Shown here in pieces: positions 2,382 to 21,943 of a stretch of 26,517 nt of DNA. How positions within the stretch are numbered: position 1 is the stretch's first letter; each line of letters opens with the position of its first letter. Source of the DNA: Clostridiales bacterium (GTDB lineage Bacteria > Bacillota > Clostridia > Christensenellales > Aristaeellaceae). The notes beneath the pieces were generated by a model that had not been told where the DNA came from, did no database searches, and worked only from the letters and a program-made list of their open reading frames with translations. Position numbers and translations under genes: made by a program. The stretch spans positions 1 through 26,517 of the forward strand of contig SFIM01000038.1 of NCBI GenBank assembly GCA_004556155.1, given 5' to 3'.

Positions 2382-3010
2382 GGGGAGTACGGGGGAACGG
2401 TGGGAACGTTACTTTCTTCAGGGAAGAAAGTAACAAAGAACCTGCGTGTGACGTAAAAGTCAATTGAATTAAGCTGGGAGTGGCCCTGGCCACCTGGCCA
2501 CCCGCCCCCGTGGCAGGGAAAAACTCAAATCGCTCGGTTCGGAGTAAACTCCAACCGGGCGATTCTTCATTTTTCCCCTTCGGTCGTGCTGCGCACGCCC
2601 TGCGCTGATCTGCGATCAGCGTGCCACGGGGGGTGTAGTTGGGTGTGGCGAACAAGCGCAGCGTCTAATGATAGTTGGACAGAATGGCCACCAAAAGGCT
2701 TCTCCTTGAGGAGAGGCTCCGCCGTAGGCGGTGGTGAGGTGTAGGCTACGAAGTAACCGTTGGCAAAGTATTTATAAAGGATAACGCGGCGGCGGCTACA
2801 CCTCATCAGTCAGCTCTCGCTGACAGCTTCTCCTCAAGGAGAAGCCCAGGCTGTCGAAAAAACTTTTTCGACAGCCTGCCGATGCAAGTCAGCTAAAGCA
2901 GACTTGTATCGGGAACGTCATTTTCTTGTGAGCCTGCGGCTCACGGCCAGAAAATGACAAAGGAAGCAGCCTGACGGCTGCTCCTCGCACCGCGCATGTC
3001 GCTGCTCTGC
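2382..3010. repeat. Composite repeat locus: left half of the modular palindrome, inverted central module (2697-2846) and hairpin-train module (2848-3006)
   Basis: G-rich tract at 2382-2407. Terminal hairpin GTTACTTTCTTCAGGGAAGAAAGTAAC at 2408-2434. The arm matches 9886-10075. 2697-2846 is the reverse complement of 10159-10310. 2848-3006 matches 18076-18234 with 4 mismatches. Confidence 0.85.
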
Positions 3011-3125: not shown

Positions 3126-6100
3126 ATGCCGCAATGGACGCAGGCGCAGCGGGAGGCCATCGACGCGCGCAACAGCGAGCTGCTGGTCAGCGCAGCGGCA
3201 GGCAGCGGCAAGACGGCCGTGCTGGTGGAGCATGTGCTGCAATTGCTGCGCGAGGGCGGGCAGATCAACCGCCTGCTGATTATCACCTTCACCCGTGCTG
3301 CGGCGGCGGAGCTGCGCGAACGCCTGATCGCCGCGCTGGATGCGGAGGCGGCGGGCAACGCGCATCTGCGCCGGCAAATGCTGCTGGCGCGCCGCGCGCA
3401 GATCAGCACGCTGCATGTGTTTTGCCATCGCGTCATTCGCCAGCATTTTCAGGCGGCGGATGTCGATCCCATGGCCAAGGTGGGCGAGAATACCGCGCTG
3501 GAGCCGCTTTTGCAGCGTGCGCTGGATGAAAGCGTGGAGGAGCTGTGCCAGTCCGATTTCCCCGACGCGCAGGCGCTGACCAGCCAGTACCAGGATGCGC
3601 AGATCGTCGAAATGGCGCGTCAGCTATACACCTTCCTGCGCGCGCAGGCCGATCCGGAAGCGTGGCTGAGCCAGCACATGGCCGATCCCGCCGGGGCCGG
3701 GCTTGCGCCCTTCCTGCTGATCCTGCGCAAGGAAGCGCTGCTGTGCCTGGAGGGCGCGGAGCAGCTGAACGATCAATGCCTGCGCCTGCTGGAGCTGCCC
3801 GGCGCGCCCGTGCATCTGCTTCCCACCGCGCAGGCCGATCAGGCGCTGCTGGCCGCTTTGCGCGATGCGCTGCGGCAGGATACCCTGCCTGCGGGCGAAT
3901 TGCGCTTTGCCGTCAAGGCACGCGCGCCCAAGAACGCGGATTTTGACCCCGCGCTGGCCGATCGCTTTACCTCCCTGCGTGACCGCATGAAGGAGCTGGC
4001 CAAGCAGGCGCGCGCCATGGTGCCCGCCGATATCGATCAGGCACGCGCCGAGGTGGCCGCCACCCTGCCCGCTCTGCGCGCGCTGATCGGCCTGGTGCAG
4101 GCCATGGATGCGCGCTATGCGCAGTACAAGCAGGAGAAAAACCTGCTGGATTATGGCGATTTGGAGCATTTGGCCCTCAAGGCGCTGGATGACGCGCAGG
4201 TGCGGCAGAGCGTGGCCGAGGGCTACGATGCGATCTTTGTCGATGAGTATCAGGATGTGTCGGCCATCGAGGAGGCCATCGTCCGCCGCGTGCACAATGA
4301 AAACAACCGTCTGTTCATGGTGGGTGACGTCAAGCAGTCCATTTATCGCTTCCGGCTGGCCGATCCCACGCTGTTTTTGAGCAAATATGAGCAGTTTGGC
4401 AGCGAAAAGAAGGCCGTTTCGCGCCGCATCCTGCTGAGCCGCAATTTCCGTTCGCGCGGCAATATCCTGGCTGCCGTCAACTGCGTGTTTGCCCGCGCCA
4501 TGCGCCGCGGCGCTACCGAGATTGCCTATGACGACGACGCGGCCCTGCACGCGGGGCTGGAAAGCACGGGCGACCCTGCCGTGCAGCTGCATATCATCAA
4601 CGACGATACCCAGGAGCCCGCGCCGGACGCGCAGGAGGAGGGCGACGATGCGGGCGAGGCGCGCAAGGGCTGGATGTACGAGGCGCAGCTGGCCGCGCGG
4701 CTGATCCGCGAGCAGGTGGGCCATCCCATCCGGGATAAGAACGGCGAGCGCGCCCTGCGCTATCGGGATTGCGTGATCCTGCTGCGCTCCGCCAGCGGCC
4801 GCGCGCCGCTGATTGCCAAGATTCTGGCCAGCGAGGGCGTGCCTGCCTACAGCGACGCCGACGCGCAGTATTTTGACCTGCCCGAGGTGCGGGATGTGAT
4901 GAACGTGCTGCGCGTGCTGGACAACCCCTATCAGGATGTGCCGCTGCTCAGCGCCCTGCGCTGCCCGTGCTTTGGCTTCACCAGCGCGCGGCTGGCCGAG
5001 ATCCGCCTGCGCGATGATACGCGGCAAAAGCCCTTCTATCAGGTGTTTTTCGCCCTGCGGGAGCAGGAGGAGGATGTGCGCGCAGCCTGCGAACGGCTGG
5101 ATACATGGCGCTTCTGGGCGCAGCATCTGCCCACCGACCGGCTGCTGTGGCGCATCCTGTCGCAGTCCGGGCTATACGCCCTGGCCGGGGCGCAGCGGGA
5201 TGGCGCGGCGCGGCAGGCCAATCTGCGCCTGCTGTGCGAGCGCGCGCAGGCAGACGGCGCGCGGGCTTCGCTGCATGATTTTCTGTCCGTCAGCGATCTG
5301 GCCAACCGCACGGGCGATGCGGGCGCGGCGCGCGAATTGGGCGAAAACGACGATGTGGTGCGCATCATGACGCTGCACAAATCCAAGGGGCTGGAGTTTC
5401 CGCTGGTCATCCTGATGGAGCTGGCGCGCAATTTCCGCATGCCCTCGGACGGGGAGCTGCTGCGCACCGACGCGCAGGCTGGCCTGGCCCTCAAGCGCGT
5501 GGACGCCGAGCGCCGCGTGACCGGGCACACGGTGGCTGGGCGGGCGCTGGCCTGCAAGCAGGCGCGGCAGATCAAGGCGGAGGAAGCGCGGCTGCTGTAC
5601 GTGGGCATGACCCGCGCGCGGGAGCGGCTGATCCTGCTGTCCTCGCCGCGCAGCATGCAGGGCGTGGCCGAGATGCGCGATATGCCCGAGGGCGATTACG
5701 CGGCGGGCTGCGCGCGCTGCATGCTGGATTGGGTGGTGCAGGCTGTGGGCGAGGGGCTGCGGACGGGGCGCGACACGCTGTTCACGGCGGCCAATGGCAG
5801 CCTGTGGGATCTGCGCTATCATGGCAGCGCGGAGTTCAGTCAGCGCTTACCGCAAGAGGAAAAATTTTTCATTCCGGATTTGTCCGAGCCGCCTTCTGCC
5901 GATTTCTGCGCGCAGATGGCGCGTCCGCCGCGGCAATCGCAGCTGCAAAAGACCAGCGTGACGGCACTTCTGCGCGGCGCGGTCTGGACGGAGGATACCG
6001 AGGAAACGCCCGAAAGCAAGCGAAAAGCGCTGCATTTGGATACGATGCCGCCTGAACTTCCGCCGTTTTTGGCTGGAACGCAGCTATCGGCGGCCGATCG

Positions 6101-6569: not shown

Positions 6570-6923
6570 GGGGTTACGGTACTTTCTTGGAGCCCAAGAA
6601 AGTACCAAAGAAGGCTGCGTTGTAGACGAAAAAGTCAAATTAATAAAACTGGGAGTGGCCCTTGCCACCTGCCGCCCCGCCCCGTGGCACGCCGATGCAA
6701 TCGGCGCGGGCTAGCGAAGCCAGACCATAGGGGAAATATTCAAGGGAACGGATGGCGCTTGCGCCGATCCGGGCACGCAGAATTTTCCCTGCCACGGGGG
6801 GCGGGTGGCCAGGGCCACTCCCAGTTTTATTCAAGCAGCTTTCACGTCACACACAGATTCTTTGTTACTTTCTTCCCTGAAGAAAGTAACGTTTCCCTCG
6901 TTCCTTCGTCCCCCTATCTCCCG
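6570..6923. repeat. Complete minimal copy of the modular palindromic repeat (about 354 bp imperfect hairpin)
   Basis: Starts at the base after the addA stop (6567-6569). Terminal hairpins at 6578-6606 and 6864-6890. The arms ...AAAACTGGGAGTGGCCCTTGCCACC... and ...GGTGGCCAGGGCCACTCCCAGTTTT... are inverted repeats. C-rich tract at 6891-6923. Confidence 0.85.
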
Positions 6924-9829: not shown

Positions 9830-10628
9830 GGGGGGACGAGGAGACGGGGAGGTTACGGTACTTTCTTGGAGCCCAAGAAAGTACCAAAGAAGGCTGCGTG
9901 TGACGTGAAAGTCAAGCTGATAAAACTGGAAGGCGGCACTGCCGCCCCCCGTGGCAGGGAAAAACTTGAATCGCTCGGTCTGGAGTAAACTCCGCCCGAG
10001 CGATTCTTTATTTTTCCCCTATGGTCTGGCTTCGCCAGCCCTGCGCTGATCTGCGATCAGCGTGCTACGGGGCGTAATTGGGTGCGGGAATTAGACTTAG
10101 CTGATTGCGATCGTTGTGAAGAGAAGCCAAGTTTCTTGAAAATCGCACGACAAAAAAAGCCTTCTCCTTGAGGAGAAGGTGGCGAATGCAGTGAGCCGAA
10201 TGAGGTGTAGCCGCCGAAGCGGCGTAATCCTTATATTGCTTTGATAACGGCTGCTTCGCAGCCTACACCTCACCACCGCCTACGGCGGAGCCTCTCCTCA
10301 AGGAGAAGCCTTTTGGTGAGTGCACCTTTCAACTATCACCAATCGCTGTGCAGAGGTTCCGCAGCTACTCAACACGCCCCCGTGGCACGCCGATTTTAAT
10401 CGGCGCAGGGCTGGCGAAGCCAGACCGAAGGGGAAACATTCAAGTGGACGGATGGCGCTTGCGCCGATCCGGGCACGCAGAATTTTCCCTGCCGCGGGGG
10501 CGGGGCGGCAGTGCCGCCTCCCATTTTAATTCAACTGACTTTCACGTCACACACAGGTTCTTTGTTACTTTCTTCCCTGAAGAAAGTAACGTCCCCCCTT
10601 CGTCCCCCTCCCCTCGTTCCCCGTCCCC
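9830..10628. repeat. Largest, nested copy of the modular palindromic repeat (about 0.8 kb)
   Basis: Starts at the base after the stop at 9827-9829. G-rich tract at 9830-9856. Terminal hairpins at 9857-9885 and 10564-10590. Central module at 10159-10310. C-rich tract at 10591-10628. The left and right arms are imperfect inverted repeats. Confidence 0.88.
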
Positions 10629-11076: not shown

Positions 11077-11780
11077 ACCGTGTATTTCTTTTGGGGGCGG
11101 CCGCGCTGGCGCTTTTGGCGATCGTATTTACCCTTTGTCGCAAAACCGTAACACCCTTGCCCCAGCCCGCGCCTGCGTCCACGCCGGCGCCCGGCCCGCT
11201 GACGGGCGTGACCATCTGCGTGGATCCCGGCCACGGCGGCTACGACGGCGGCGCGCGCGGGCAGGCTTCCGGCGCGCTGGAAAAGGACGTCAACCTGGCC
11301 GTGGCGCTGTGCCTGCGCCAGGAGCTACAGGCCGCGGGCGCGCAGGTGATCCTGACCCGCGATACGGACACGGCGCTGGCGGAGGAGGGCGCGCAGCGCA
11401 AGCGGCGCGATCTGCAATACCGCGTGGATGCGGCGCGCGAGGCGCGGCTCTTTCTCTCGATCCACATGAACGAGTATCGCACGCGCGCGGAGTCCGGGCC
11501 GCAGGTGTTTTACCGTGCGGGGCAGGAGGACAGCCGTCTGCTGGCCGGGGCGCTGCAGGCGCAGCTGATTGCGGGGCTGCGTCCTGCGCGCGAGCGCAGC
11601 GCGCACACGGGCGAATACTACCTGCTGGAGCACCTGGACATTCCGGCGGTGCTGGTGGAGTGCGGTTTTCTTTCCAACGCCGCCGAGGAGGCGAAGCTGC
11701 TGGACGCGGGGTATCAGCAGCAGGTGGCGCAGGCCATTTGCGCGGGGGTATGCGATTTTATCCAATTATCGGGGAAGTAG
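11067..11780 (+). CDS. cwlD: N-acetylmuramoyl-L-alanine amidase, CwlD type (germination-specific, Amidase_3)
   Basis: Start at MWKNRVFLLG (ATG 11067), giving 237 aa with an N-terminal TM segment. DPGHGGYDGGA, EKDVNL, RKRRDLQYRV, LSIHMN and VECGFLSN align with my recollection of B. subtilis CwlD. Confidence 0.8.
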   Translation: MWKNRVFLLGAAALALLAIVFTLCRKTVTPLPQPAPASTPAPGPLTGVTICVDPGHGGYDGGARGQASGALEKDVNLAVALCLRQELQAAGAQVILTRDTDTALAEEGAQRKRRDLQYRVDAAREARLFLSIHMNEYRTRAESGPQVFYRAGQEDSRLLAGALQAQLIAGLRPARERSAHTGEYYLLEHLDIPAVLVECGFLSNAAEEAKLLDAGYQQQVAQAICAGVCDFIQLSGK

Positions 11781-12199
11781 GAGGCGAGGGGGGAACGAGG
11801 GGGACGTTACTTTCTTCAGGAAAGAAAGTAACAAAGAACCTGTGTGTGACGTAAAAGTTAATTGGATTAAACTGGAAGGCGGCACTGCCGTTTTGTGCCC
11901 CGTGGCAGGGAAAATTCGCGGGCCCGGATCGGCGCAAGCGCCATCCGTCCCCTTGAATATTTCCCCTATGGTCTGGCTTCGCCAGCCCAAGGGGGAAAGC
12001 AGGAAGCGAACGGAGGAAAGCTTGCTTTCATCCGGGCGGTTCAGGCTTTCACCTGCCACGGGGGCATACAGACGGCCAGGGCCACTCCCAGTTTAAAACC
12101 AGCAGCTTTTCCGTCCACAACACAGGTTCTTTGTTTCTTTCTTGACTCAAGAAAGAAACGTCCCTCCCCCGTCCTCCCTCGTCCCCCTCGTCTCTCTCT
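11781..12199. repeat. Copy of the modular palindromic repeat with mixed arm variants
   Basis: Starts at the base after the cwlD stop (11778-11780). Terminal hairpins at 11806-11832 (GTTACTTTCTTCAGGAAAGAAAGTAAC) and 12133-12159 (GTTTCTTTCTTGACTCAAGAAAGAAAC). C-rich tract at 12160-12199. An inner module is shared, inverted, with 15056-15118. Confidence 0.85.
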
Positions 12200-12253: not shown

Positions 12254-12280
12254 GAGATGACTACAAAAGGGGGTCTTTTT

Positions 12281-14866
12281 ATGCGCCGCTTTATCAAGCG
12301 TTTTTTGCCTACTCTGCTCTGCGCGCTGCTGATCGCCCAGGGCGCGCTGGCTTATACCACGCTGCGTCCCGGCGATAAGGGCGCGGATGTGCTGCGCATG
12401 CAGCAGGCGCTGTCCGCGCTGGGCTACACCGTCACATGCGACGGCTCCTTCGGCACGCAAACGTACACCGCCGTCTATAACTTTCAGAACGATTACGGCC
12501 TGAAGGTGGATGGCAAGGCCGGCGATCAAACGCTGACCAAGCTGTACGAATTGTACAACAGCATGTCCACCAAGCCCGGCGGCAGCCAGGGCGGCGCCTC
12601 CACGGGCACGCAGACCCCGCCCGCCACGGTGTATTGCGCCAACGGCGGCAGCCTGAACGTGCGCCGCGGCCCCGGCACCGGCTATGCCGCCTTCTATCAA
12701 ATCCCCAACGGCGCAACGGTGAATGTGCTGGAGCGCGGCAGCAAGTGGTGCCAGATCAGCTACGATTCCACCGTGACTGGCTATGTGATGACCTCCTTCC
12801 TGCGCTTTTCGCAGGATACGCCCGTGGTCACGCCCTCTCCCGATACCAGCATGGAAACGGCCTATGTTTCCTGCGCGGACGGCGGCAGCCTGAACCTGCG
12901 CCAGCGCCCCGTATCGGGCGGGAAGATCCTCACCCGCGTGCCCAACGGCACGCAGCTGCGCGTCACCCGCGTGGATGGCAAGTGGTGCTATACCACCTAC
13001 AACGGCCAGTCGGGCTATGTGATGAGCAGCTTCCTGTATTTCGCCTCCGTCCCCGCGCTGCCCACCCCCACGCCGGTCATCAGCCCCACGCCCGTGCCCC
13101 CCACCGCCGGCAGCGATGCGCTGACCGCCCGCGTGCAGCCCGCCAACGGCGGCAGCCTGAACCTGCGCCAGCGTCCGGCCTCCGGCAATAACGTGATCGC
13201 GCAGATTCCCTACGGCACGGTGCTGAGCGTCACCCGCATCGACGCCACCTGGTGCCTGACCACCTATAACGGCCAGGCCGGCTATGTGATGAGCAAGTTC
13301 CTCACCTTCTACGGCGGCGCGGTCACGCCCACGGCCACCCCCACGCCCAGCGTGAACCCCGGCACCGAGCTGCTGCCGGGCTATGTATACTGCGCCAACG
13401 GCAAAAAGCTGAACCTGCGCTCCGGCCCCGGCCTGACCTACGACGTGCTGTTCAAGATTCCCAACGGCGCGGCCGTCACCGTCACCCAGCGCCTTACCGG
13501 CTGGTACTGCGTATCCTATGAAAGCTATACCGGCTTTGTCAACAGCGATTACATCGTGCTCAGCGGCGGTGCGCCCACCGTGCCCTCCGTGGCCACGCCC
13601 ACGCCCGTGCCCTCCAGCGACAGCACCATCCATTACGGCGAGCTGCGCTACGCCACGGTCAATACGGTGAACAACTCCCTGAACGTGCGCAAGGTCCCCG
13701 GCGGCCGGCAGATCGGCTCCTTCCAGAAGGGCAGCCGCGTGGTGGTATCGCAGATCCTCACCGTGGACGGCGTGGAATGGTGTGCGGCCTATCAGGGTGG
13801 CCTCAGCGGCTATGTGCAGCGCCAGTACCTGGTGCTGGATGCGCGCGTGACCCCCGCCCCCACCACGCCCGACACCGCCTACGACACCTCCATCCTGGTG
13901 CGCAACCTCAAGCTCAACAGCACCGGCGCGGATGTGCGCCTGGTGCAGACGCGCCTGGTGGAGCTGAACTACCTCTCCTCCGCCAACGGCACCTACGACT
14001 CCGCCACGCAGACGGCAGTGAAGCGCTTCCAGCAGCTGCACGGCCTGAGCCAGGATGGCGTGGCCGGCCCCAACACGTTTAAGCTGCTGTTCTCCTCCAC
14101 GGCGCTGCCTTACAGCACCGAGGCCTCCAACTACACCAGCTACCTGATCGACTATAACGAATCGGCCAACGAGGTGCGCACCAAGGCCATTCAGCGCGCG
14201 CAGCTGGCGCTATCCAACCTGAACTACAACGTGGCGACCGACGGCAAATTCAACGAGGCCATGCACGACGCGCTGGTTGCCTTCCAGCTGCGCAACGGCA
14301 TCACGGCCACGGGCGTGCTGGATGCGGCCACGCAGGCGCGCCTGTACTCCGGCAAGGCCAACGACGCGGCCACCGCGCCGCGCGAATACCTGGCCGATAA
14401 CGCGGGCTACACGGCCAATCCGCCCAAGGCCAGCGATGTAAAGCTGCTGCACTGGTACAACACGGTCAAGCCCATGATGAGCAGCGGCACGGCCTTTACG
14501 GTATACGATCCCGACAGCGGCTTATCCTGGAAGCTGCAGGTGCTTTCGCCCGGCCGTCACTGCGACAGCCAGCCCGTCACCCTGCAGGATACGCTGATCA
14601 TGCAGAAGGCCTTTGACGGCAAGAGCAGCTGGAACATGCACATCGTCTATGTGCAGCTGCCCAACGGCACCTGGTGCATGGCCGGCATGCACAACCGCCC
14701 GCACCAGAGCAACGGCATCCTGGGCAACGGCTTCGGCGGCCATCTGTGCGTGCACTTCCTGCGCGATATGGACGAGACCAAGAAGGCCGATCCTGTGACC
14801 GGCGTGCAGTATCAGAACCTGCTGCGCGACGCCTGGTACAACCTGACCGGCGAAAAGATCAACTAA
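12281..14866 (+). CDS. Secreted cell-wall-binding protein: signal peptide, PG_binding_1 domain, five SH3b repeats with Pro/Thr linkers, two more PG_binding_1 domains, and an unassigned C-terminal domain
   Basis: Start at MRRFIKRFLPTLLCALLIAQGALA (ATG 12281) behind AAAGGGGG. Five repeats of the type GGSLNLRQRP..G..I..IP.G..L.V.....WC.TTYNGQ.GYVMS.FL. PG-binding motifs occur three times (YTVTCDGSFGTQTYTAVYNFQNDYGLKVDGKAG and two later copies). Confidence 0.8.
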   Translation: MRRFIKRFLPTLLCALLIAQGALAYTTLRPGDKGADVLRMQQALSALGYTVTCDGSFGTQTYTAVYNFQNDYGLKVDGKAGDQTLTKLYELYNSMSTKPGGSQGGASTGTQTPPATVYCANGGSLNVRRGPGTGYAAFYQIPNGATVNVLERGSKWCQISYDSTVTGYVMTSFLRFSQDTPVVTPSPDTSMETAYVSCADGGSLNLRQRPVSGGKILTRVPNGTQLRVTRVDGKWCYTTYNGQSGYVMSSFLYFASVPALPTPTPVISPTPVPPTAGSDALTARVQPANGGSLNLRQRPASGNNVIAQIPYGTVLSVTRIDATWCLTTYNGQAGYVMSKFLTFYGGAVTPTATPTPSVNPGTELLPGYVYCANGKKLNLRSGPGLTYDVLFKIPNGAAVTVTQRLTGWYCVSYESYTGFVNSDYIVLSGGAPTVPSVATPTPVPSSDSTIHYGELRYATVNTVNNSLNVRKVPGGRQIGSFQKGSRVVVSQILTVDGVEWCAAYQGGLSGYVQRQYLVLDARVTPAPTTPDTAYDTSILVRNLKLNSTGADVRLVQTRLVELNYLSSANGTYDSATQTAVKRFQQLHGLSQDGVAGPNTFKLLFSSTALPYSTEASNYTSYLIDYNESANEVRTKAIQRAQLALSNLNYNVATDGKFNEAMHDALVAFQLRNGITATGVLDAATQARLYSGKANDAATAPREYLADNAGYTANPPKASDVKLLHWYNTVKPMMSSGTAFTVYDPDSGLSWKLQVLSPGRHCDSQPVTLQDTLIMQKAFDGKSSWNMHIVYVQLPNGTWCMAGMHNRPHQSNGILGNGFGGHLCVHFLRDMDETKKADPVTGVQYQNLLRDAWYNLTGEKIN

Positions 14867-14920: not shown

Positions 14921-15142
14921 GGGGGAGGACGGGGGGACGGGGGAGAGACGGTACTTTCTTGAGTCAAGAAAGTACCAAAGAACCTGTGTTGTGAACGGGA
15001 AAGCTGCTGGTTTTAAACTGGGAGTGGCCCTGGCCACCTGCCGCCCCGCCCCCGTGGCAGGTGAAAGCCTGAACCGCCCGGATGAAAGCAAGCTTTCCTC
15101 CGTTCGCTTCCTGCTTTCCCCCTTCGTCTCCCCCGTCCTCTC
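14921..15142. repeat. Half copy of the modular palindromic repeat
   Basis: G-rich tract at 14921-14949. Terminal hairpin GGTACTTTCTTGAGTCAAGAAAGTACC at 14950-14976. One arm plus one inner module, and a C-rich tract ending about 15142. There is no second terminal hairpin. Confidence 0.8.
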
Positions 15143-15247: not shown

Positions 15248-15655
15248 ATGGCCCATGAGATATTATCGGCCAAGCTCCATGAGCTGGACGAGCGTGTGGC
15301 GCGGCTGCATAGCCGGGTGTTGATCAGCGAGGGCGAGAACCTGTCCACCCTGCGGCAGGAGGAGGAAGCCCTGCGGCGCGAGTGCGCGCAGGATGAAATG
15401 ACGCTGCGCAATCGCCTGTGCCATAGCCGCAGCCAGGCAGCCAGCGATATTGCCGCGTCCTTCAGCAGGATGGACGGCATGCTCAGCCAGGCGCGCGAAA
15501 ACGCGCTGAGCCAGCCCAGCAGCGAGCAGGCGCTGCTGCTGGCCGAGTACGCGCTGGACTTTGCCCTGCAGGCGGCCAGCCGGGCGCTGCTGATCAGCCT
15601 GGAAGCCATCGACGCGCAGATGACCGAACAAGAGGAAGCGAGGAACGCGCAATGA
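15248..15655 (+). CDS. Hypothetical 135-aa helical or coiled-coil protein, translationally coupled to ftsH
   Basis: ATG 15248 lies 7 nt after AGGAGG. Its stop overlaps the ftsH start (ATGA at 15652-15655). The composition is Leu/Glu/Ala/Arg/Gln-rich. No family recognised. Confidence 0.55.
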   Translation: MAHEILSAKLHELDERVARLHSRVLISEGENLSTLRQEEEALRRECAQDEMTLRNRLCHSRSQAASDIAASFSRMDGMLSQARENALSQPSSEQALLLAEYALDFALQAASRALLISLEAIDAQMTEQEEARNAQ

Positions 15656-17493
15656 AAGAAGCGAAATCCCCCAAGAAACCGTTGATTTTTTACTACGGCG
15701 TGGTGCTGGCCGTGCTGCTGGCGTTCAATATGATCGTCTCCCCCCTGCTGCTGGAGCGGCAGGTGACGGAGGTGGATTACGGCACGTTCATGCGCATGAT
15801 CGACGATAAGGATATCGGCGAGGTGCAGATGGACGACAGCGAGATTCTGTTTTCCAATAAGGCGGGCGACGCGGTGTATAAGACCGTCGCTTTGCAGGAT
15901 AGCACGCTGGTGCAGCGCCTGTACGAGGCGGGCGCCAAGTTCTCCGGCACGGTGGAAAAAACCATGTCCCCCCTGCTGAGCCTGCTGCTTACCGGCGTGC
16001 TGCCGCTGCTGGTTTTTGTGGCGCTGGGCCAGTTCCTCAGCCGCAAGCTCATTGAGCAGGCCGGCGGCAAGAACGCCATGAGCTTTGGCATGGGCAAGAG
16101 CAACGCCAAGGTGTATGTGCAGTCCAGCCAGGGCATCCATTTCAGCGATGTGGCGGGCGAGGACGAGGCCAAGGAAAGCCTGGCCGAGATTGTGGATTAT
16201 CTGCATAACCCGCAGAAATACACCGAGGTTGGCGCGTCCATGCCCAAGGGCGTGCTGCTTGTGGGCCCTCCAGGCACCGGTAAAACCATGCTGGCCAAGG
16301 CTGTCGCGGGCGAGGCCAACGTGCCCTTCTTCTCCATCTCCGGCTCGGAATTTGTGGAAATGTTCGTAGGTATGGGCGCAAGCAAGGTGCGCGATCTGTT
16401 CAAGCAGGCCAAGGAAAAGGCGCCCTGCATCGTGTTTATCGATGAAATCGACGCCATCGGCCAGAAGCGCAACAGCGGCAACATGGGCGGCAACGACGAG
16501 CGCGAGCAGACCCTGAACCAGCTGCTGACCGAAATGGACGGCTTTGAGGGCAACAACGGCGTGATCATTCTGGCCGCCACCAACCGCCCCGAGGCGCTGG
16601 ATCCCGCGCTGACGCGCCCCGGCCGCTTTGACCGCCGCGTGCCTGTGGAGCTGCCCGACTTGCAGGGCCGCGAGGCCATTTTGAAGGTGCACGCCCGCAA
16701 GATCAAGACCACGCCCGATGTGGACTTCCACGTCATCGCGCGCATGGCCTCGGGCGCCTCGGGCGCGGAGCTGGCCAACATCATCAATGAGGCGGCGCTG
16801 CGCGCGGTGCGCGATCATCGCACCCAGGTGACGCAGGCCGACCTGGAAGAAAGCATCGAAGTCGTCATCGCAGGCTATCAGAAGAAGAACGCCGTGCTGT
16901 CCGATCAGGAAAAGCACGTGGTGGCCTATCACGAGATTGGCCACGCGCTGGTAGCGGCGCTGCAAAGCCATTCCGCCCCGGTGCAGAAGATCACCATTAT
17001 CCCCCGCACCTCCGGCGCGCTGGGCTATACCATGCAGGTGGAGGAGGCCGATAAGAACCTGCTGACCAAGCAGGAATTGCTCAATAAAATCGCCACCCTG
17101 ACCGGCGGCCGCGCGGCGGAGGAGGTCAAGTTTGGCGAGATCACCACGGGCGCGTCCAACGATATCGAGCAGGCCACCAAGCTGGCCCGCGCCATGATTA
17201 CCCGCTACGGCATGAGCGATGAATTTGACATGGTGGCCATGGAAACCGTGACCAACCAGTACCTGGGCGGCGACGCGCAGCTGAGCTGCTCGGCCGAAAC
17301 CCAGCGCGAGATCGACCGCAAGGTGGTAAACGTGGTGCGCGAGCAGCACGAAAAGGCGCGCAAGATTCTGGATGAAAACCGCGCCAAGCTGGACGAACTG
17401 TCCCAGTACCTGTACGAGAAGGAAACCATCACGGGCGAGGAATTCATGCGCATCCTGGAGGCGGATACCAGGAAGGAGGAGCAGAACAAATGA
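15652..17493 (+). CDS. ftsH: ATP-dependent zinc metalloprotease FtsH
   Basis: Two N-terminal TM segments. Walker A GPPGTGKT, Walker [13 protein letters not shown] region [20 protein letters not shown], and zinc site HEIGHAL. Confidence 0.95.
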
Positions 17494-18032
17494 AAAGGCG
17501 TTCAAGCTACGGCGTGTATGAGCTGATTGTCGGTATTCTGCTGATCCTGCTGGGTATTTTCACCTTCACCCGTCCGCAGAGCGCGCTGACCGGCCTGGTG
17601 GTGCTTTACGGCCTGCTGGCCACGATCACGGGCATTGGCGATATCGTGTTCTACGTCAAGATGGAAAAGCACACGGGCTTTGGCCCCACGATCTCGCTGA
17701 TCTCGGGCATCCTGAGCGTGATGACGGGCCTGGTGCTGATGGTGCATCCCGGCGCGGGCCGTTGGGCGATGATGGTGTTCTTCCCCATCTGGTTCATCGC
17801 GCACTGCATCTCCCGCCTGTCGCATGGGCACATGGTGCGCTTTGTGGCGGGCAGCGCGGCCTATTGGTTCTCGCTGATTATCAACTCCCTGGGTTTGGCG
17901 CTGGGCTTTCTGATGCTGATCAAGCCCTATTACAGCCTGCTCTCCATCACGTTTATGATCGGCGTATACCTGATCCTGCTGGGGCTGGACAGCCTGGGCG
18001 AGGCGTTTTCCAGGATGGGCGAGAATTGGTAA
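17490..18032 (+). CDS. DUF308/HdeD-like integral membrane protein
   Basis: 180 aa with about six hydrophobic helices in a repeated GILLILLGIFTF/GLVLMVHPG pattern. The start overlaps the ftsH stop (ATGA). Confidence 0.65.
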   Translation: MKRRSSYGVYELIVGILLILLGIFTFTRPQSALTGLVVLYGLLATITGIGDIVFYVKMEKHTGFGPTISLISGILSVMTGLVLMVHPGAGRWAMMVFFPIWFIAHCISRLSHGHMVRFVAGSAAYWFSLIINSLGLALGFLMLIKPYYSLLSITFMIGVYLILLGLDSLGEAFSRMGENW

Positions 18033-18042
18033 ATAGCATGAA

Positions 18043-18337
18043 AAGCGTTCCTGAGCAAATGGCTCAGGACGCTTCAGGCTGTCGAAAAACCTTTTTCGAC
18101 AGCCTGACGATGCAAGTCAGCTAAAGCGGACTTGCATCGGGAACGTCATTTTCTTGTGAGCCTGCGGCTCACGGCCAGAAAATGACAAAGGAAGCAGCCT
18201 GACGGCTGCTCCTCGCACCGCGCATGTCGCTGCTATATGAAGGGGCTGCGGCCCCTTCATGCATCCCAAGAGTTTAAGCGAGACTTTTTTAACAATCTGA
18301 AGCGTTCCTGAGCAAATGGCTCAGGACGCTTTTTTAT
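18043..18337. repeat. Hairpin-train module (18076-18234) plus extra hairpins, flanked by a 32-bp direct duplication of a terminator hairpin
   Basis: AAGCGTTCCTGAGCAAATGGCTCAGGACGCTT occurs at 18043-18074 and 18300-18331. The interior contains the hairpins AGGCTGTCGAAAAACCTTTTTCGACAGCCT, GATGCAAGTC..GACTTGCATC, CGTCATTTTCT..AGAAAATGAC, GCAGCCTGACGGCTGC and GAAGGGGCTGCGGCCCCTTC. 18076-18234 is about 97% identical to 2848-3006. Confidence 0.85.
18300..18337 (+). terminator. Intrinsic terminator (second copy of the duplicated hairpin, the one that keeps the T-tract)
   Basis: Stem AGCGTTCCTGAGC pairs with GCTCAGGACGCT, followed by TTTTTT (18331-18336). Confidence 0.7.
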
Positions 18338-18375
18338 AGAGTGGCAAGAAACGTGCCCATGCTTATAGCCAATGA

Positions 18376-21055: not shown

Positions 21056-21536
21056 CGTTGGCGATGGAAGATCAGCTAAGACGCAACGATCAGGATTCTC
21101 TCATTTCCTGCCGGCAATTCTGCCTGGATGGCGCCTTTATCAAACAGGGCGGCGCCGAGCCTGGATTTCCGTTAGTTAATGCAAATTTTTTATGGATTTC
21201 ATTCATCTTTAAGCTGAGGAAGCACCCCTCGCGCGTGCGCGCGCGAATACGAATATATATAAAAAAATGCGCCACGGCTCTTTGCCGAAGCGCAGATGAA
21301 AATAAAAGTGAAATCAGGGCATCCCAAAATTTCACCTTTGATATGAAGCCCAAAACAACAAAACAGCGGAGGTTTTACCCTTCCGCTGTTTTATATGTGA
21401 GCACAAATAGTGTCTGTTACTATCTGCCGTCCTTGTTCTGTATTCAGTTGTTACTTGGGTTCGTATCTATCTTCAAAGGGAAAAAGCCGTTTTTGCATCT
21501 ACGAATTTGAAACTTTGAAAAACGGCGTTTGGGTAG

Positions 21537-21595: not shown

Positions 21596-21943
21596 TGGTG
21601 GAGGCGAGGGGAATCGAACCCCTGTCCGAAGACCGAATTACAGGATTTTCTCCGAGCGCAGGACGCATTTTGGATTTCCCTTGCCCCAGCGCCTGCGAAC
21701 GGGCTATGGGGCTTGGTAGCTTCATTTTACCGGCCTCGCCGCAAAGCTTAGGCGGGCCTGTTCCTCACATCAATGACGCTGCTTGCCAAAGCCGTGAGCG
21801 CTTTGGGGCAACGCGCAGCCATTAGGCCGCGAAAGCGTAACTGTTATTGTCAGTTAATTTTAATTTCCCCGTTTTTACGAGGCCAGGGTCCTCGGCTCGC
21901 TTATCCTGTCCTTCGCCATCCCCGTCGAAACCAGAACGCCCCC
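21596..21943 (-). ncRNA. ssrA: tmRNA (transfer-messenger RNA)
   Basis: On the minus strand the RNA reads 5' GGGGGCGUUCUGGUUUCGACGGGG ... GGACAGGGGUUCGAUUCCCCUCGCCUCCACCA 3'. The acceptor stem has the G3:U pair. The internal tag frame GAC AAU AAC AGU UAC GCU UUC GCG GCC UAA encodes ...DNNSYAFAA-stop. smpB lies directly upstream. Confidence 0.95.

Follow-up and report, generated by a model that had tools for sequence, protein, structure and literature searches.

The geometry of the transposase normally fixes the length of a target duplication at a few base pairs. A departure from sequence-based target choice is found in IS1272/TnSha1, a member of the IS1182 family in Staphylococcus, which integrates into secondary structures, mostly terminator hairpins, without primary-sequence specificity and deletes part or all of the hairpin, leaving no duplication (PMC4923244). 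In the cruciform model that Wan et al. put forward for IS1272, attack at the 3′ feet removes stem-loops; an alternative, attack at the 5′ feet ('pathway b'), would leave the complete stem-loop in duplicate (PMC5678879, Discussion and Fig. 13). Long and variable direct repeats, of 8-514 bp, accompany IS1634/IS1549, for which there is 'no mechanistic model' (PMC2266710), and extragenic palindromes serve as landing sites for REP-targeting insertion sequences (PMC1525189). Bacterial MITEs are co-transcribed with their neighbours and exhibit presence/absence polymorphism and size variants; the duplications given in a 2024 review of these elements are only short ones, fixed at 2-9 bp, e.g. 7-9 bp for QMITE2 (PMC10969869). 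Finally, in integration by Cas1-Cas2 and casposons, both borders of a ~30-bp, often palindromic unit are attacked, and gap repair then duplicates the unit on both sides of the insert (cf. PMC5137440).

Here we analyze a 26,517-bp stretch of DNA from an uncultured human-gut Clostridiales bacterium (GenBank assembly GCA_004556155.1, contig SFIM01000038.1; hereafter the window), in which a small non-coding element is flanked by two copies of a terminator hairpin. Like IS1272, the element targets hairpins and has terminal inverted repeats (16 bp in IS1272, whose subterminal regions are hairpin-rich). Unlike IS1272, it duplicates the entire hairpin instead of deleting it, and whereas IS1272 is autonomous (1.9 kb, with a 548-aa transposase), the element is 234 bp long and has no linked IS1182-type gene. 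With bacterial MITEs (Correia, ERIC, RUP, BOX/SPRITE, QMITE and Chunjie) it shares its small size, lack of coding capacity, multiple copies, inverted repeats, intergenic location and stable fold, but its duplications measure 22-34 bp and are set by the size of the target hairpin. As in IS1634/IS1549, these duplications are far longer than usual and differ between copies; however, every long duplication of the element corresponds to exactly one hairpin, and no such coincidence with palindromes is reported for IS1634/IS1549. Palindromic landing sites, and the accumulation of hairpin-based elements after genes, are also features of REP and REPIN-RAYT systems. In contrast to the conserved, repeated REP sequence, each target hairpin of the element is unique and its copies are direct repeats rather than inverted doublets, and the REP-targeting insertion sequences generate short duplications or none. 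The presence of a whole duplicated unit on both sides of the insert recalls Cas1-Cas2 spacer integration; here, however, the window ORFs include no cas genes, there is neither an array nor a leader, each site has no more than two copies of the repeat, the insert measures 234 bp and has inverted-repeat ends, and the duplicated unit changes from site to site. Compared with the structure-targeting transposition known from IS1272, the outcome at the hairpin is the opposite one. The element family displays just the outcome of 'pathway b' of the IS1272 model.

Results

A terminator hairpin is present twice around the insert

The exact 32-mer AAGCGTTCCTGAGCAAATGGCTCAGGACGCTT occurs twice in the window (Table 1) and not once in 100 dinucleotide shuffles. 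The upstream copy folds as an end-to-end hairpin of -20.2 kcal/mol. At the downstream copy, a terminator-like site is called at 18306-18326 together with the T-run that follows, and the hairpin and its six Ts are predicted to form an intact intrinsic terminator: a G+C-rich stem-loop followed by a T-run, which in the empty alleles (see below) lies 10 nt past the DUF308 stop codon. The region from 18033 to 18345 has a minimum free energy of -164.6 kcal/mol (z = -10.7 vs. shuffles).

A preliminary description of this DNA, made from the letters alone, had reported the 32-nt hairpin at exactly these two positions, with the first copy 10 nt past the DUF308 stop and devoid of a T-tract, and ~225 bp of consecutive hairpins between the copies. 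All of this is borne out, the intervening segment folding as described. Two details require adjustment. The TTTTTT said to follow the second copy is real, but the repeat itself ends in TT and is followed by TTTT, so that the T-run and the repeat overlap by 2 nt. Similarly, the 159 nt said to be ~97% identical to positions 2848-3006 do carry the 4 mismatches reported, but the matching segment extends over 160 nt (18075-18234 vs. 2847-3006, 97.5% identity).

The order of ftsH and the DUF308 gene is identical in all related contigs. A TldD/PmbA gene pair lies downstream of the site. A truncated TldD gene in one related locus (L008) was considered as a mobile-element breakpoint and rejected, as it represents only divergence into unrelated sequence.

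Table 1. Features of the two element-bearing sites in the window.
Feature	Position	Strand	Evidence or remark
ftsH	15652-17493		FtsH domains; upstream of the DUF308 gene
DUF308 gene	17490-18032	+	Pfam PF03729; closes the ftsH-DUF308 unit, the terminator of which received the insertion
Upstream terminator-hairpin copy (left target duplication)	18043-18074	+	Exact 32-mer; cut off from the T-tract
Inserted element	18075-18299	+	Absent in 16 assemblies, present in 10; hairpins H1-H5
H1, perfect palindrome	18075-18106	+	Alignment of copies; compensatory G-C to C-G change in 3 of 8 copies
Left terminal inverted repeat CAGGCTGTCGAAAAA	18075-18089	+	First 15 nt of H1
H2 hairpin	18107-18140	+	Three base pairs changed on both sides across family members
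H3 nested hairpin	18145-18186	+	Fold; inner stem swapped yet paired in L011b and L024:4952
H4 hairpin	18190-18212	+	With the tail, the most conserved stretch; search anchor
Conserved tail	18213-18234	+	Comparison with L003-L009; window-specific 9-nt deletion at its end
H5 hairpin ATGAAGGGGCTGCGGCCCCTTCAT	18237-18260	+	Fold, covariation
Right terminal inverted repeat TTTTTTAACAATCTG	18285-18299	+	Reverse complement is CAGATTGTTAAAAAA
Downstream terminator-hairpin copy (right target duplication)	18300-18331	+	Exact 32-mer; with T6 at 18330-18335
Hairpin AGCTTCTCCTCAAGGAGAAGCC, left target duplication of the second copy	2825-2846	+	Recurs past the full element in L054/L056
Second element copy, shortened	2847-3006	+	Right 74 bp and downstream hairpin copy deleted in the window strain

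Filled and empty alleles coexist at the window site

Contigs encoding the identical DUF308 protein, or either of two close variants of it, were compared at the window site. Ten independent assemblies are filled (hairpin-element-hairpin), and 16 are empty, with one hairpin and a T-run. The filled contigs include one of 221 kb and reach 3.3 Mb (ERZ28751751:contig_1402). Among the empty alleles, 11 of the 16 carry exactly the 32-mer that is duplicated in the filled ones, and 5 have a variant hairpin (GCA; T or C at position 8) seen in no filled allele. One empty allele, L073, is otherwise isogenic with filled alleles, having the same A4, T6 and downstream haplotype, and its difference from the filled allele L067 amounts to exactly 234 + 32 bp. 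Two hairpins without the insert were found in none of the assemblies compared at this site. The existence of both filled and empty assemblies, with none having the two hairpins alone, rules out an assembly artefact and, in the classical manner, proves a target duplication from the empty site.

Two downstream haplotypes, represented by L004 and L003, accompany the filled allele. Comparison with L003-L009 also reveals that the window copy lacks 9 nt, GCGGATTAC, between 18234 and 18235, which are present in every other filled allele.

The second element copy of the window was examined in the same way, using contigs that encode the identical GH4 protein. L055, L057, L061 and L062 are empty at this second site and contain AGCTTCTCCTCAAGGAGAAGCC once, followed by TTTT. 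L054 and L056 are filled, and both junctions can be read in them: hairpin, full 234-bp element, AGCTTTTCCTCAAGGAAAAGCC and TTTT. L059 and L063 likewise have a full-length element at this site. The hairpin that was hit here is itself the terminal repeat of another small element, X (2697-2846). The hairpin pair around element X was also considered as a target duplication and rejected: its copies are inverted (loops TTGA and TCAA) and are therefore that element's own inverted repeats.

Seven sites each have their own duplicated hairpin

Direct duplications of the whole local hairpin adjoin the element ends with single-nucleotide precision at 7 sites, no two of which have the same hairpin. The duplication is 32 nt long at window position 18043, 31 nt at L019, 31 nt at L024a (with 1 mismatch), 34 nt at L039, 28 nt at L053, 22 nt at L024b (with 1 mismatch) and 22 nt at window position 2825. 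The loops are oriented alike in both copies, which are therefore direct and not inverted repeats. Every duplicated segment is an end-to-end hairpin, its first base pairing with its last, and is symmetric about the hairpin dyad. Larger G+C cores have longer duplications (r = 0.94, p = 0.002, n = 7), the duplication being 1-6 nt longer than the core. There is no target sequence common to the duplication sites, and the flanking hairpins differ completely from site to site, which is not the pattern of REP/REPIN elements.

The same picture emerges when flanks are counted separately. Upstream, 12 of 13 distinct flanks end in a hairpin at the junction; downstream, ~15 of 18 distinct flanks begin with a hairpin that is followed by a T-run. 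The L013 group represents the one site without a hairpin and has only a ~7-nt flanking repeat, AATTAYT. Many of the element's sites lie between convergent genes, which suggests that bidirectional terminators are hit. The left end of the element faces away from the longer T-run at ~10 of 11 sites. The exception is L024b, where the A-run stays with the upstream copy and the polarity relative to the T-run is opposite; a strict orientation relative to the T-tract was consequently rejected in favour of a bias (~10:1). Some loci have mismatched flanks, for example L020, L021, L026, L037 and L070. Each flank of such loci also occurs in other loci, and they are probably short-read chimeras joined via the repeat.

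To the preliminary description, the locus had looked like a recent mobility or recombination event that duplicated its hairpin target. It had suggested looking for single-hairpin relatives, for the duplication in independent assemblies and for duplicated hairpins around other copies of the module, and had regarded relatives with two hairpins but no module as evidence to the contrary. Its proposal is supported by the empty and filled alleles as well as by the other copies: single-hairpin relatives exist (16 assemblies), the duplication recurs in 10 assemblies including the 3.3-Mb contig, an own hairpin is duplicated at each of the 7 sites, and the contrary type of relative did not turn up. Its remark that the duplication is far longer than typical target site duplications also holds beyond the window site, the range being 22-34 nt.

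Architecture and distribution of the element

Aligned copies define an element of ~234 bp with CAGGCTGTCGAAAAA at its left end and TTTTTTGACAATCTG at its right, the window copy having 225 bp. Its terminal inverted repeats are ~15 nt long (CAGGCTGTCGAAAAA / CAGGCTGTCAAAAAA) and are identical at 9-14 of 15 positions depending on the copy, 14 of 15 being reached in L025-type copies. The left end is doubled into the perfect palindrome H1. The element is non-coding, its longest stop-free stretch being 41 codons, and it has no Rfam match at gathering thresholds or at E <= 1. (The only Rfam match in the window is a tmRNA, located elsewhere.) Across the copies, 5 base pairs in H1, H2 and H5 are changed on both sides, with 97.6% of cells paired, and the covariation score is higher than those of all 500 shuffles and of every slid control. 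More distant family members keep the linkers, while whole hairpins are swapped or added.

When a 24-mer from H3 was searched against species-representative genomes, a single locus (L011) was obtained; the species-representative genome is probably a fragmented MAG. In L011 the unit is one continuous sequence, and hence the '159-nt module' forms a single unit with the other 65 bp. By means of a 26-mer that is conserved in both L011 and the window, 42 human-gut metagenome loci were then retrieved, among which the element occupies at least 12-15 distinct sites. Copy density is several per 100 kb: two copies lie in the 26.5-kb window, and one 117-kb contig contributes at least three full copies (two in L024 and one in L019). 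Deletions of the slippage type, between short repeats, are seen in L034, in the L033 group, and in the window as the 9-nt deletion and that of the copy at 2847.

The insert therefore combines a non-coding length below 500 bp, terminal inverted repeats, target-derived direct repeats with a corresponding empty site, and dispersed copies. Judged by these sequence features, it is probably a member of a MITE family.

As to the host, 2,822 blocks of the assembly collection have an index entry for the DUF308 protein, and the organism is therefore a common one in the human gut. All records of the window proteins come from MAGs that bear the label Clostridiales bacterium or Eubacteriales bacterium.

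Search for a transposase and relation to IS1182/IS1272

No transposase or full-length parent element was found in the window. The transposases of ISKpn6 and IS1272 were used in tblastn searches of 458-519 kb of related DNA, which gave no match to an IS1182-type gene; this family has DDE transposases with DUF772 / DDE_Tnp_1 / DDE_Tnp_1_6 domains. Searches for the parent element likewise gave no match, either by blastn in plasmid and phage collections or with two patterns in viral contigs, and in the related loci examined there were no extra terminal-inverted-repeat matches beside long ORFs. Among the best 120 database relatives of IS1272, all named ones are from Bacilli (many are unnamed), and none is on the 3.3-Mb contig.

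The termini were compared as well. IS1272 (L086) and IS1272-like elements of other Firmicutes end in AGGCTGGGACATAAAT or GAGGCTGGGACAAAAC. Counted from the tip, GAGGCTGGGACAAAAC is identical to the element ends (CAGGCTGTCGAAAAAC, CAGGCTGTCAAAAAAG) at 11 of 16 positions, and the left end of IS1272 itself at 9-10. The 11/16 match has a background of 3.8e-4 per 16-mer, or ~0.03 when the number of comparisons made is allowed for. Termini within the IS1182 family are heterogeneous: ISKpn6 and the Methylobacterium members end in CTAGGAG..., and 'AGGCT' as a family-wide terminal signature was rejected on the basis of L087 and L090. Intact ISKpn6 was absent from two blaKPC plasmids; the ends of ISKpn6 from pKpQIL look unrelated to those of the element, and its flanks are uninformative. 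The IS1272-clade elements examined sit directly between an A-run and a T-run without hairpin duplication, which is consistent with replacement of the hairpin. For IS1182, ISfinder reportedly lists repeats of 0-60 bp.

The element thus shares the hairpin and terminator targeting of the IS1182/IS1272 type, but at 7 sites the hairpin is duplicated rather than deleted. The functional analogy to IS1272 is strong, whereas membership in the IS1182 family is unproven. We regard the placement of the element's enzyme in that family, within the IS1272 clade, as tentative, with a chance somewhat short of even.

Discussion

Proposed mechanism

The identical termini, the terminal inverted repeats, the abutting duplications and their dyad symmetry argue for a transposase-type reaction, and we infer that the enzyme is a DDE transposase. 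We consider it likely that the element is a transposase-driven MITE that inserts at palindromes by attack at opposite feet, with gap repair duplicating the hairpin. In this mechanism, the transposase would pick DNA palindromes as targets, which in intergenic DNA are mostly intrinsic-terminator hairpins. Each element end would be joined to a different target strand, one at either foot of the palindrome and within ~1-3 bp of the base of the G+C stem. Each of the two single-stranded gaps would then contain the whole palindrome, and repair synthesis would fill them to leave one complete hairpin on either side of the element. The cuts would fall inside the A-run and the T-run at the stem base, so that the upstream copy would keep the A-run and lose the T-tract, which would stay with the downstream copy. 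At the window site, ftsH-DUF308 transcripts are predicted to continue past the first hairpin, across the element and as far as 18335, where they would end.

The duplication length follows the hairpin and is only ~7 nt at the non-palindromic site. This would indicate that the intrinsic stagger is short and that the enzyme sees the two feet as neighbours, as would be the case if the target were recognised as an extruded cruciform with the stagger spanning its junction. The pattern points to an enzyme that reads DNA shape and not sequence. Several observations run counter to this mechanism. The searches described above yielded no transposase or parent element, and the IS1272-clade elements examined do not duplicate hairpins. 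A two-fold symmetric cruciform predicts random orientation, whereas ~10 of 11 sites are oriented alike, and the distance of the cuts from the stem base differs by a few nt between sites. In addition, the covariation of 5 pairs in the hairpins could reflect a role at the RNA level, which the transposase model does not explain.

A more far-reaching version, which we regard as unlikely, is that the cruciform is docked as a four-way junction and that the choice of strand pair sets the outcome: the hairpin would be duplicated, as in the element studied here, when the 5′ feet are attacked, and deleted, as in IS1272, when the 3′ feet are. If this were true, duplication and deletion would be alternative results of a single structure-guided integration mechanism, like the two axes of Holliday-junction resolution. 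The hairpin train could then grow by capturing duplicated target hairpins during imprecise re-mobilisation, a corollary based on family members that differ by whole hairpins with conserved linkers, and repeated hits on one terminator would build hairpin-insert-hairpin arrays.

Alternative explanations

Hairpins are obstacles to replication forks. A fork stalled at the terminator hairpin might switch template to the module locus and then back to a point upstream, copying the hairpin twice with no need for an enzyme of the element. The preliminary description had offered such a replication-fork or hairpin-templated insertion as an example of an unusual mechanism, and the many slippage-type deletions in the element family would suit it. 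Independent template switches would, however, give variable junctions, whereas the boundaries of the element are identical to the nucleotide at no fewer than 7 sites with unrelated hairpins, its ends are inverted repeats, and the duplications are always dyad-symmetric and abut these ends exactly. Staggered attack on the feet of a palindrome fits these features better than template switching, and we consider the replication-based explanation very unlikely.

Systems of the HUH/Y1 type insert beside a short specific sequence and produce no target duplication. A single-strand transposition of this kind, IS200/IS605- or RAYT-like, into a hairpin on single-stranded DNA is marginally less probable still. 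It would account for an element built of co-varying hairpin stems, which would serve as recognition structures, and for the biased orientation. The use of DNA hairpins by REP/RAYT and IS200/IS605 systems (cf. PMC3333891) also speaks for it. Yet in the element the duplication is the hallmark and the termini are inverted repeats. The 22-34-nt duplications and the lack of a shared target sequence set it apart from IS200/IS605-type (PATE) elements, which insert 3′ of a fixed tetra- or pentanucleotide, and there is no Y1 gene among the window ORFs.

It could also be argued that the filled state is the older one, a structured 3′-UTR module, and that the empty alleles arose by deletion between the 32-bp repeats. 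Recombination between direct repeats gives exactly the single-hairpin allele, the filled allele is present on two downstream haplotypes, and deletions are frequent in the element family. This reading nevertheless offers no account of a different duplicated hairpin at each of 7 sites, and the 5 empty alleles with hairpin variants absent from filled alleles also contradict it. We give it little credence, although excision may well occur in addition to insertion.

Even less probable is an RNA-mediated route, in which the element would be transcribed in 3′ UTRs and reinserted at terminators by a reverse transcriptase, in the manner of group IIC introns. The location in transcribed 3′ regions just past the terminator stem is indeed similar to theirs, and the covarying structure and the orientation bias would agree with such a route. 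On the other hand, the element is only 234 bp long, without an ORF or any Rfam intron or other RNA match, and no reverse transcriptase gene is found among the window ORFs; moreover, inverted repeats and symmetric target duplications are features of DNA transposons, and L024b has the opposite orientation. Finally, a collapsed or chimeric repeat in this one assembly has practically no probability: short-read contigs do join different copies via the element, as in the loci with mismatched flanks, but identical filled junctions appear in 10 independent assemblies from different studies, the 221-kb and 3.3-Mb contigs among them.

Implications

For genome analysis, elements of this kind would lengthen 3′ UTRs, create decoy hairpins without T-tracts and confound terminator prediction, and in abundant gut Clostridiales they cause breaks or false joins in short-read assemblies. 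An enzyme with the specificity proposed here could be applied to insert DNA at terminators without disrupting genes.

With regard to transposition itself, a duplication length that is set by the secondary structure of the target constitutes natural, multi-site evidence for structure-guided integration, and the duplication of a whole hairpin was until now only a hypothetical branch of the IS1272 cruciform model. The pattern implies that terminator palindromes may be accessible in living cells in a folded or dyad-recognisable form. The transposase-driven insertion that we favour would also illustrate how mobile DNA avoids harm: the site of insertion is neutral, the terminator is restored on the far side of the element, and the 3′ UTR of the upstream gene is predicted to carry the element along.

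Other repeats and genes in the window

Besides the miniature inverted-repeat element (MITE), the window carries a second intergenic repeat family of ~200-250 nt, represented by at least seven copies and far more abundant than the MITE. No match to this family was found in Rfam. Three of its copies (2382, 6572 and 9839) start no more than ~10 nt from a stop codon, and the start of the 11780 copy falls just within the preceding ORF. A G-rich run opens the copies at 2382, 11780 and 14924, and those at 2382, 6572, 9839, 11780 and 14924 each contain a GTTACTTTCTT...AAGAAAGTAAC-type hairpin. Genes frequently have inverted copies on their two sides.

Repeats and genes located in the window
Feature	Coordinates	Strand or orientation	Description
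Second intergenic repeat family	2382-2631, 6572-6914, 9839-10075, 10378-10615, 11780-11988, 11989-12178, 14924-15129	both orientations	
~150-bp element	2697-2846		ends are inverted copies of the 22-nt palindromic hairpin GGCTTCTCCTTGAGGAGAAGCY
~150-bp element	10155-10310	inverted	ends as above
869-aa protein gene	12257-14866	+	four SH3_3 and three PG_binding_1 repeats
tmRNA gene	21596-21943	-	Rfam RF00023, 191 bits

The right hairpin of the first ~150-bp element, together with TTTT, is the target of the MITE copy at 2847. In L055, L057, L061 and L062, which are empty at this site, the ~150-bp element contains a nested insert of ~108 bp. Several of the direct-repeat families reported in the window result from the internal DNA repeats of the 869-aa protein gene, which have a period of ~237-267 nt. 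The ORF at 21058-21510, upstream of the tmRNA gene, gave no Pfam hit.

Mismatched joins between copies

In five contigs (L070, L020, L021, L026 and L037), the left flank of one MITE copy is joined to the right flank of another. The left half of L070, for example, resembles window 18075-18218, and its right half resembles L011 at ~3795-4055. Such joins arose either when copies recombined or when short-read assembly produced chimeras through the 234-bp repeat. The similarity of L008 (one assembly) to the window ends at ~4263, within the TldD gene (window 18743), with unrelated genes beyond; this break is either a rearrangement or a chimera. The GH4 locus is also found on the L008 contig, in inverted relative orientation.

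Insertion sequences with terminator-like ends

On the Pseudomonas aeruginosa plasmid pZYPA192 (L090), an IS1182-family insertion sequence at 1076-2705 is bounded by AAAAAGCCCGGC ... GCCGGGCTTTTT. Together, these borders resemble a terminator palindrome split in two, as though insertion had taken place within the hairpin. IS1272-like elements from other Firmicutes (L091 and L094-L097) have terminator-like hairpins just within both ends, and are directly adjoined by an A-run on one side and a T-run on the other. Given this placement of the runs, the inverted repeats at their ends imitate the replaced terminator's stem.

Variation of the target hairpin

The orthologue of window 2825-3006 lies at ~4255-4535 in L054 and L056, where two changes separate the downstream from the upstream hairpin copy (GCTTCTCC..GGAGAAGC vs. 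GCTTTTCC..GGAAAAGC). Since the changes are complementary, pairing is preserved; the difference could reflect selection on the terminator or templated correction within the hairpin. Among the empty alleles of the 18043 site (L001, L002, L005, L006 and L010 vs. L073 and L076-L085), the hairpin varies (GCTCAGCACGC vs. GCTCAGGACGC; position 8 is T or C), as does the length of the T-run (T4 or T6). Of the hairpin variants, the one that received the insertion has the better-paired stem.

Decay and turnover of the element

Two sets of alleles are decay variants: L034 (~11615-11839) has the window site without the second hairpin copy, through a deletion between two T6 runs, and L033, L035, L046 and L052 have the L024a site without the first hairpin copy and the internal hairpin H1. 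A partial tandem duplication of the MITE, also without H1, occurs in L011 (3680-4053) and L048 (437-810). It sits 3′ of a complete terminator and T-run and lacks a flanking duplication; the inner stem of its H3 has been exchanged but still pairs. Finally, the divergent members in L024 (4952-5120), L012 (1100-1409) and L048 (7430-7667) keep the linkers while whole hairpins are replaced or added, which suggests that the hairpins of the MITE train undergo modular turnover.
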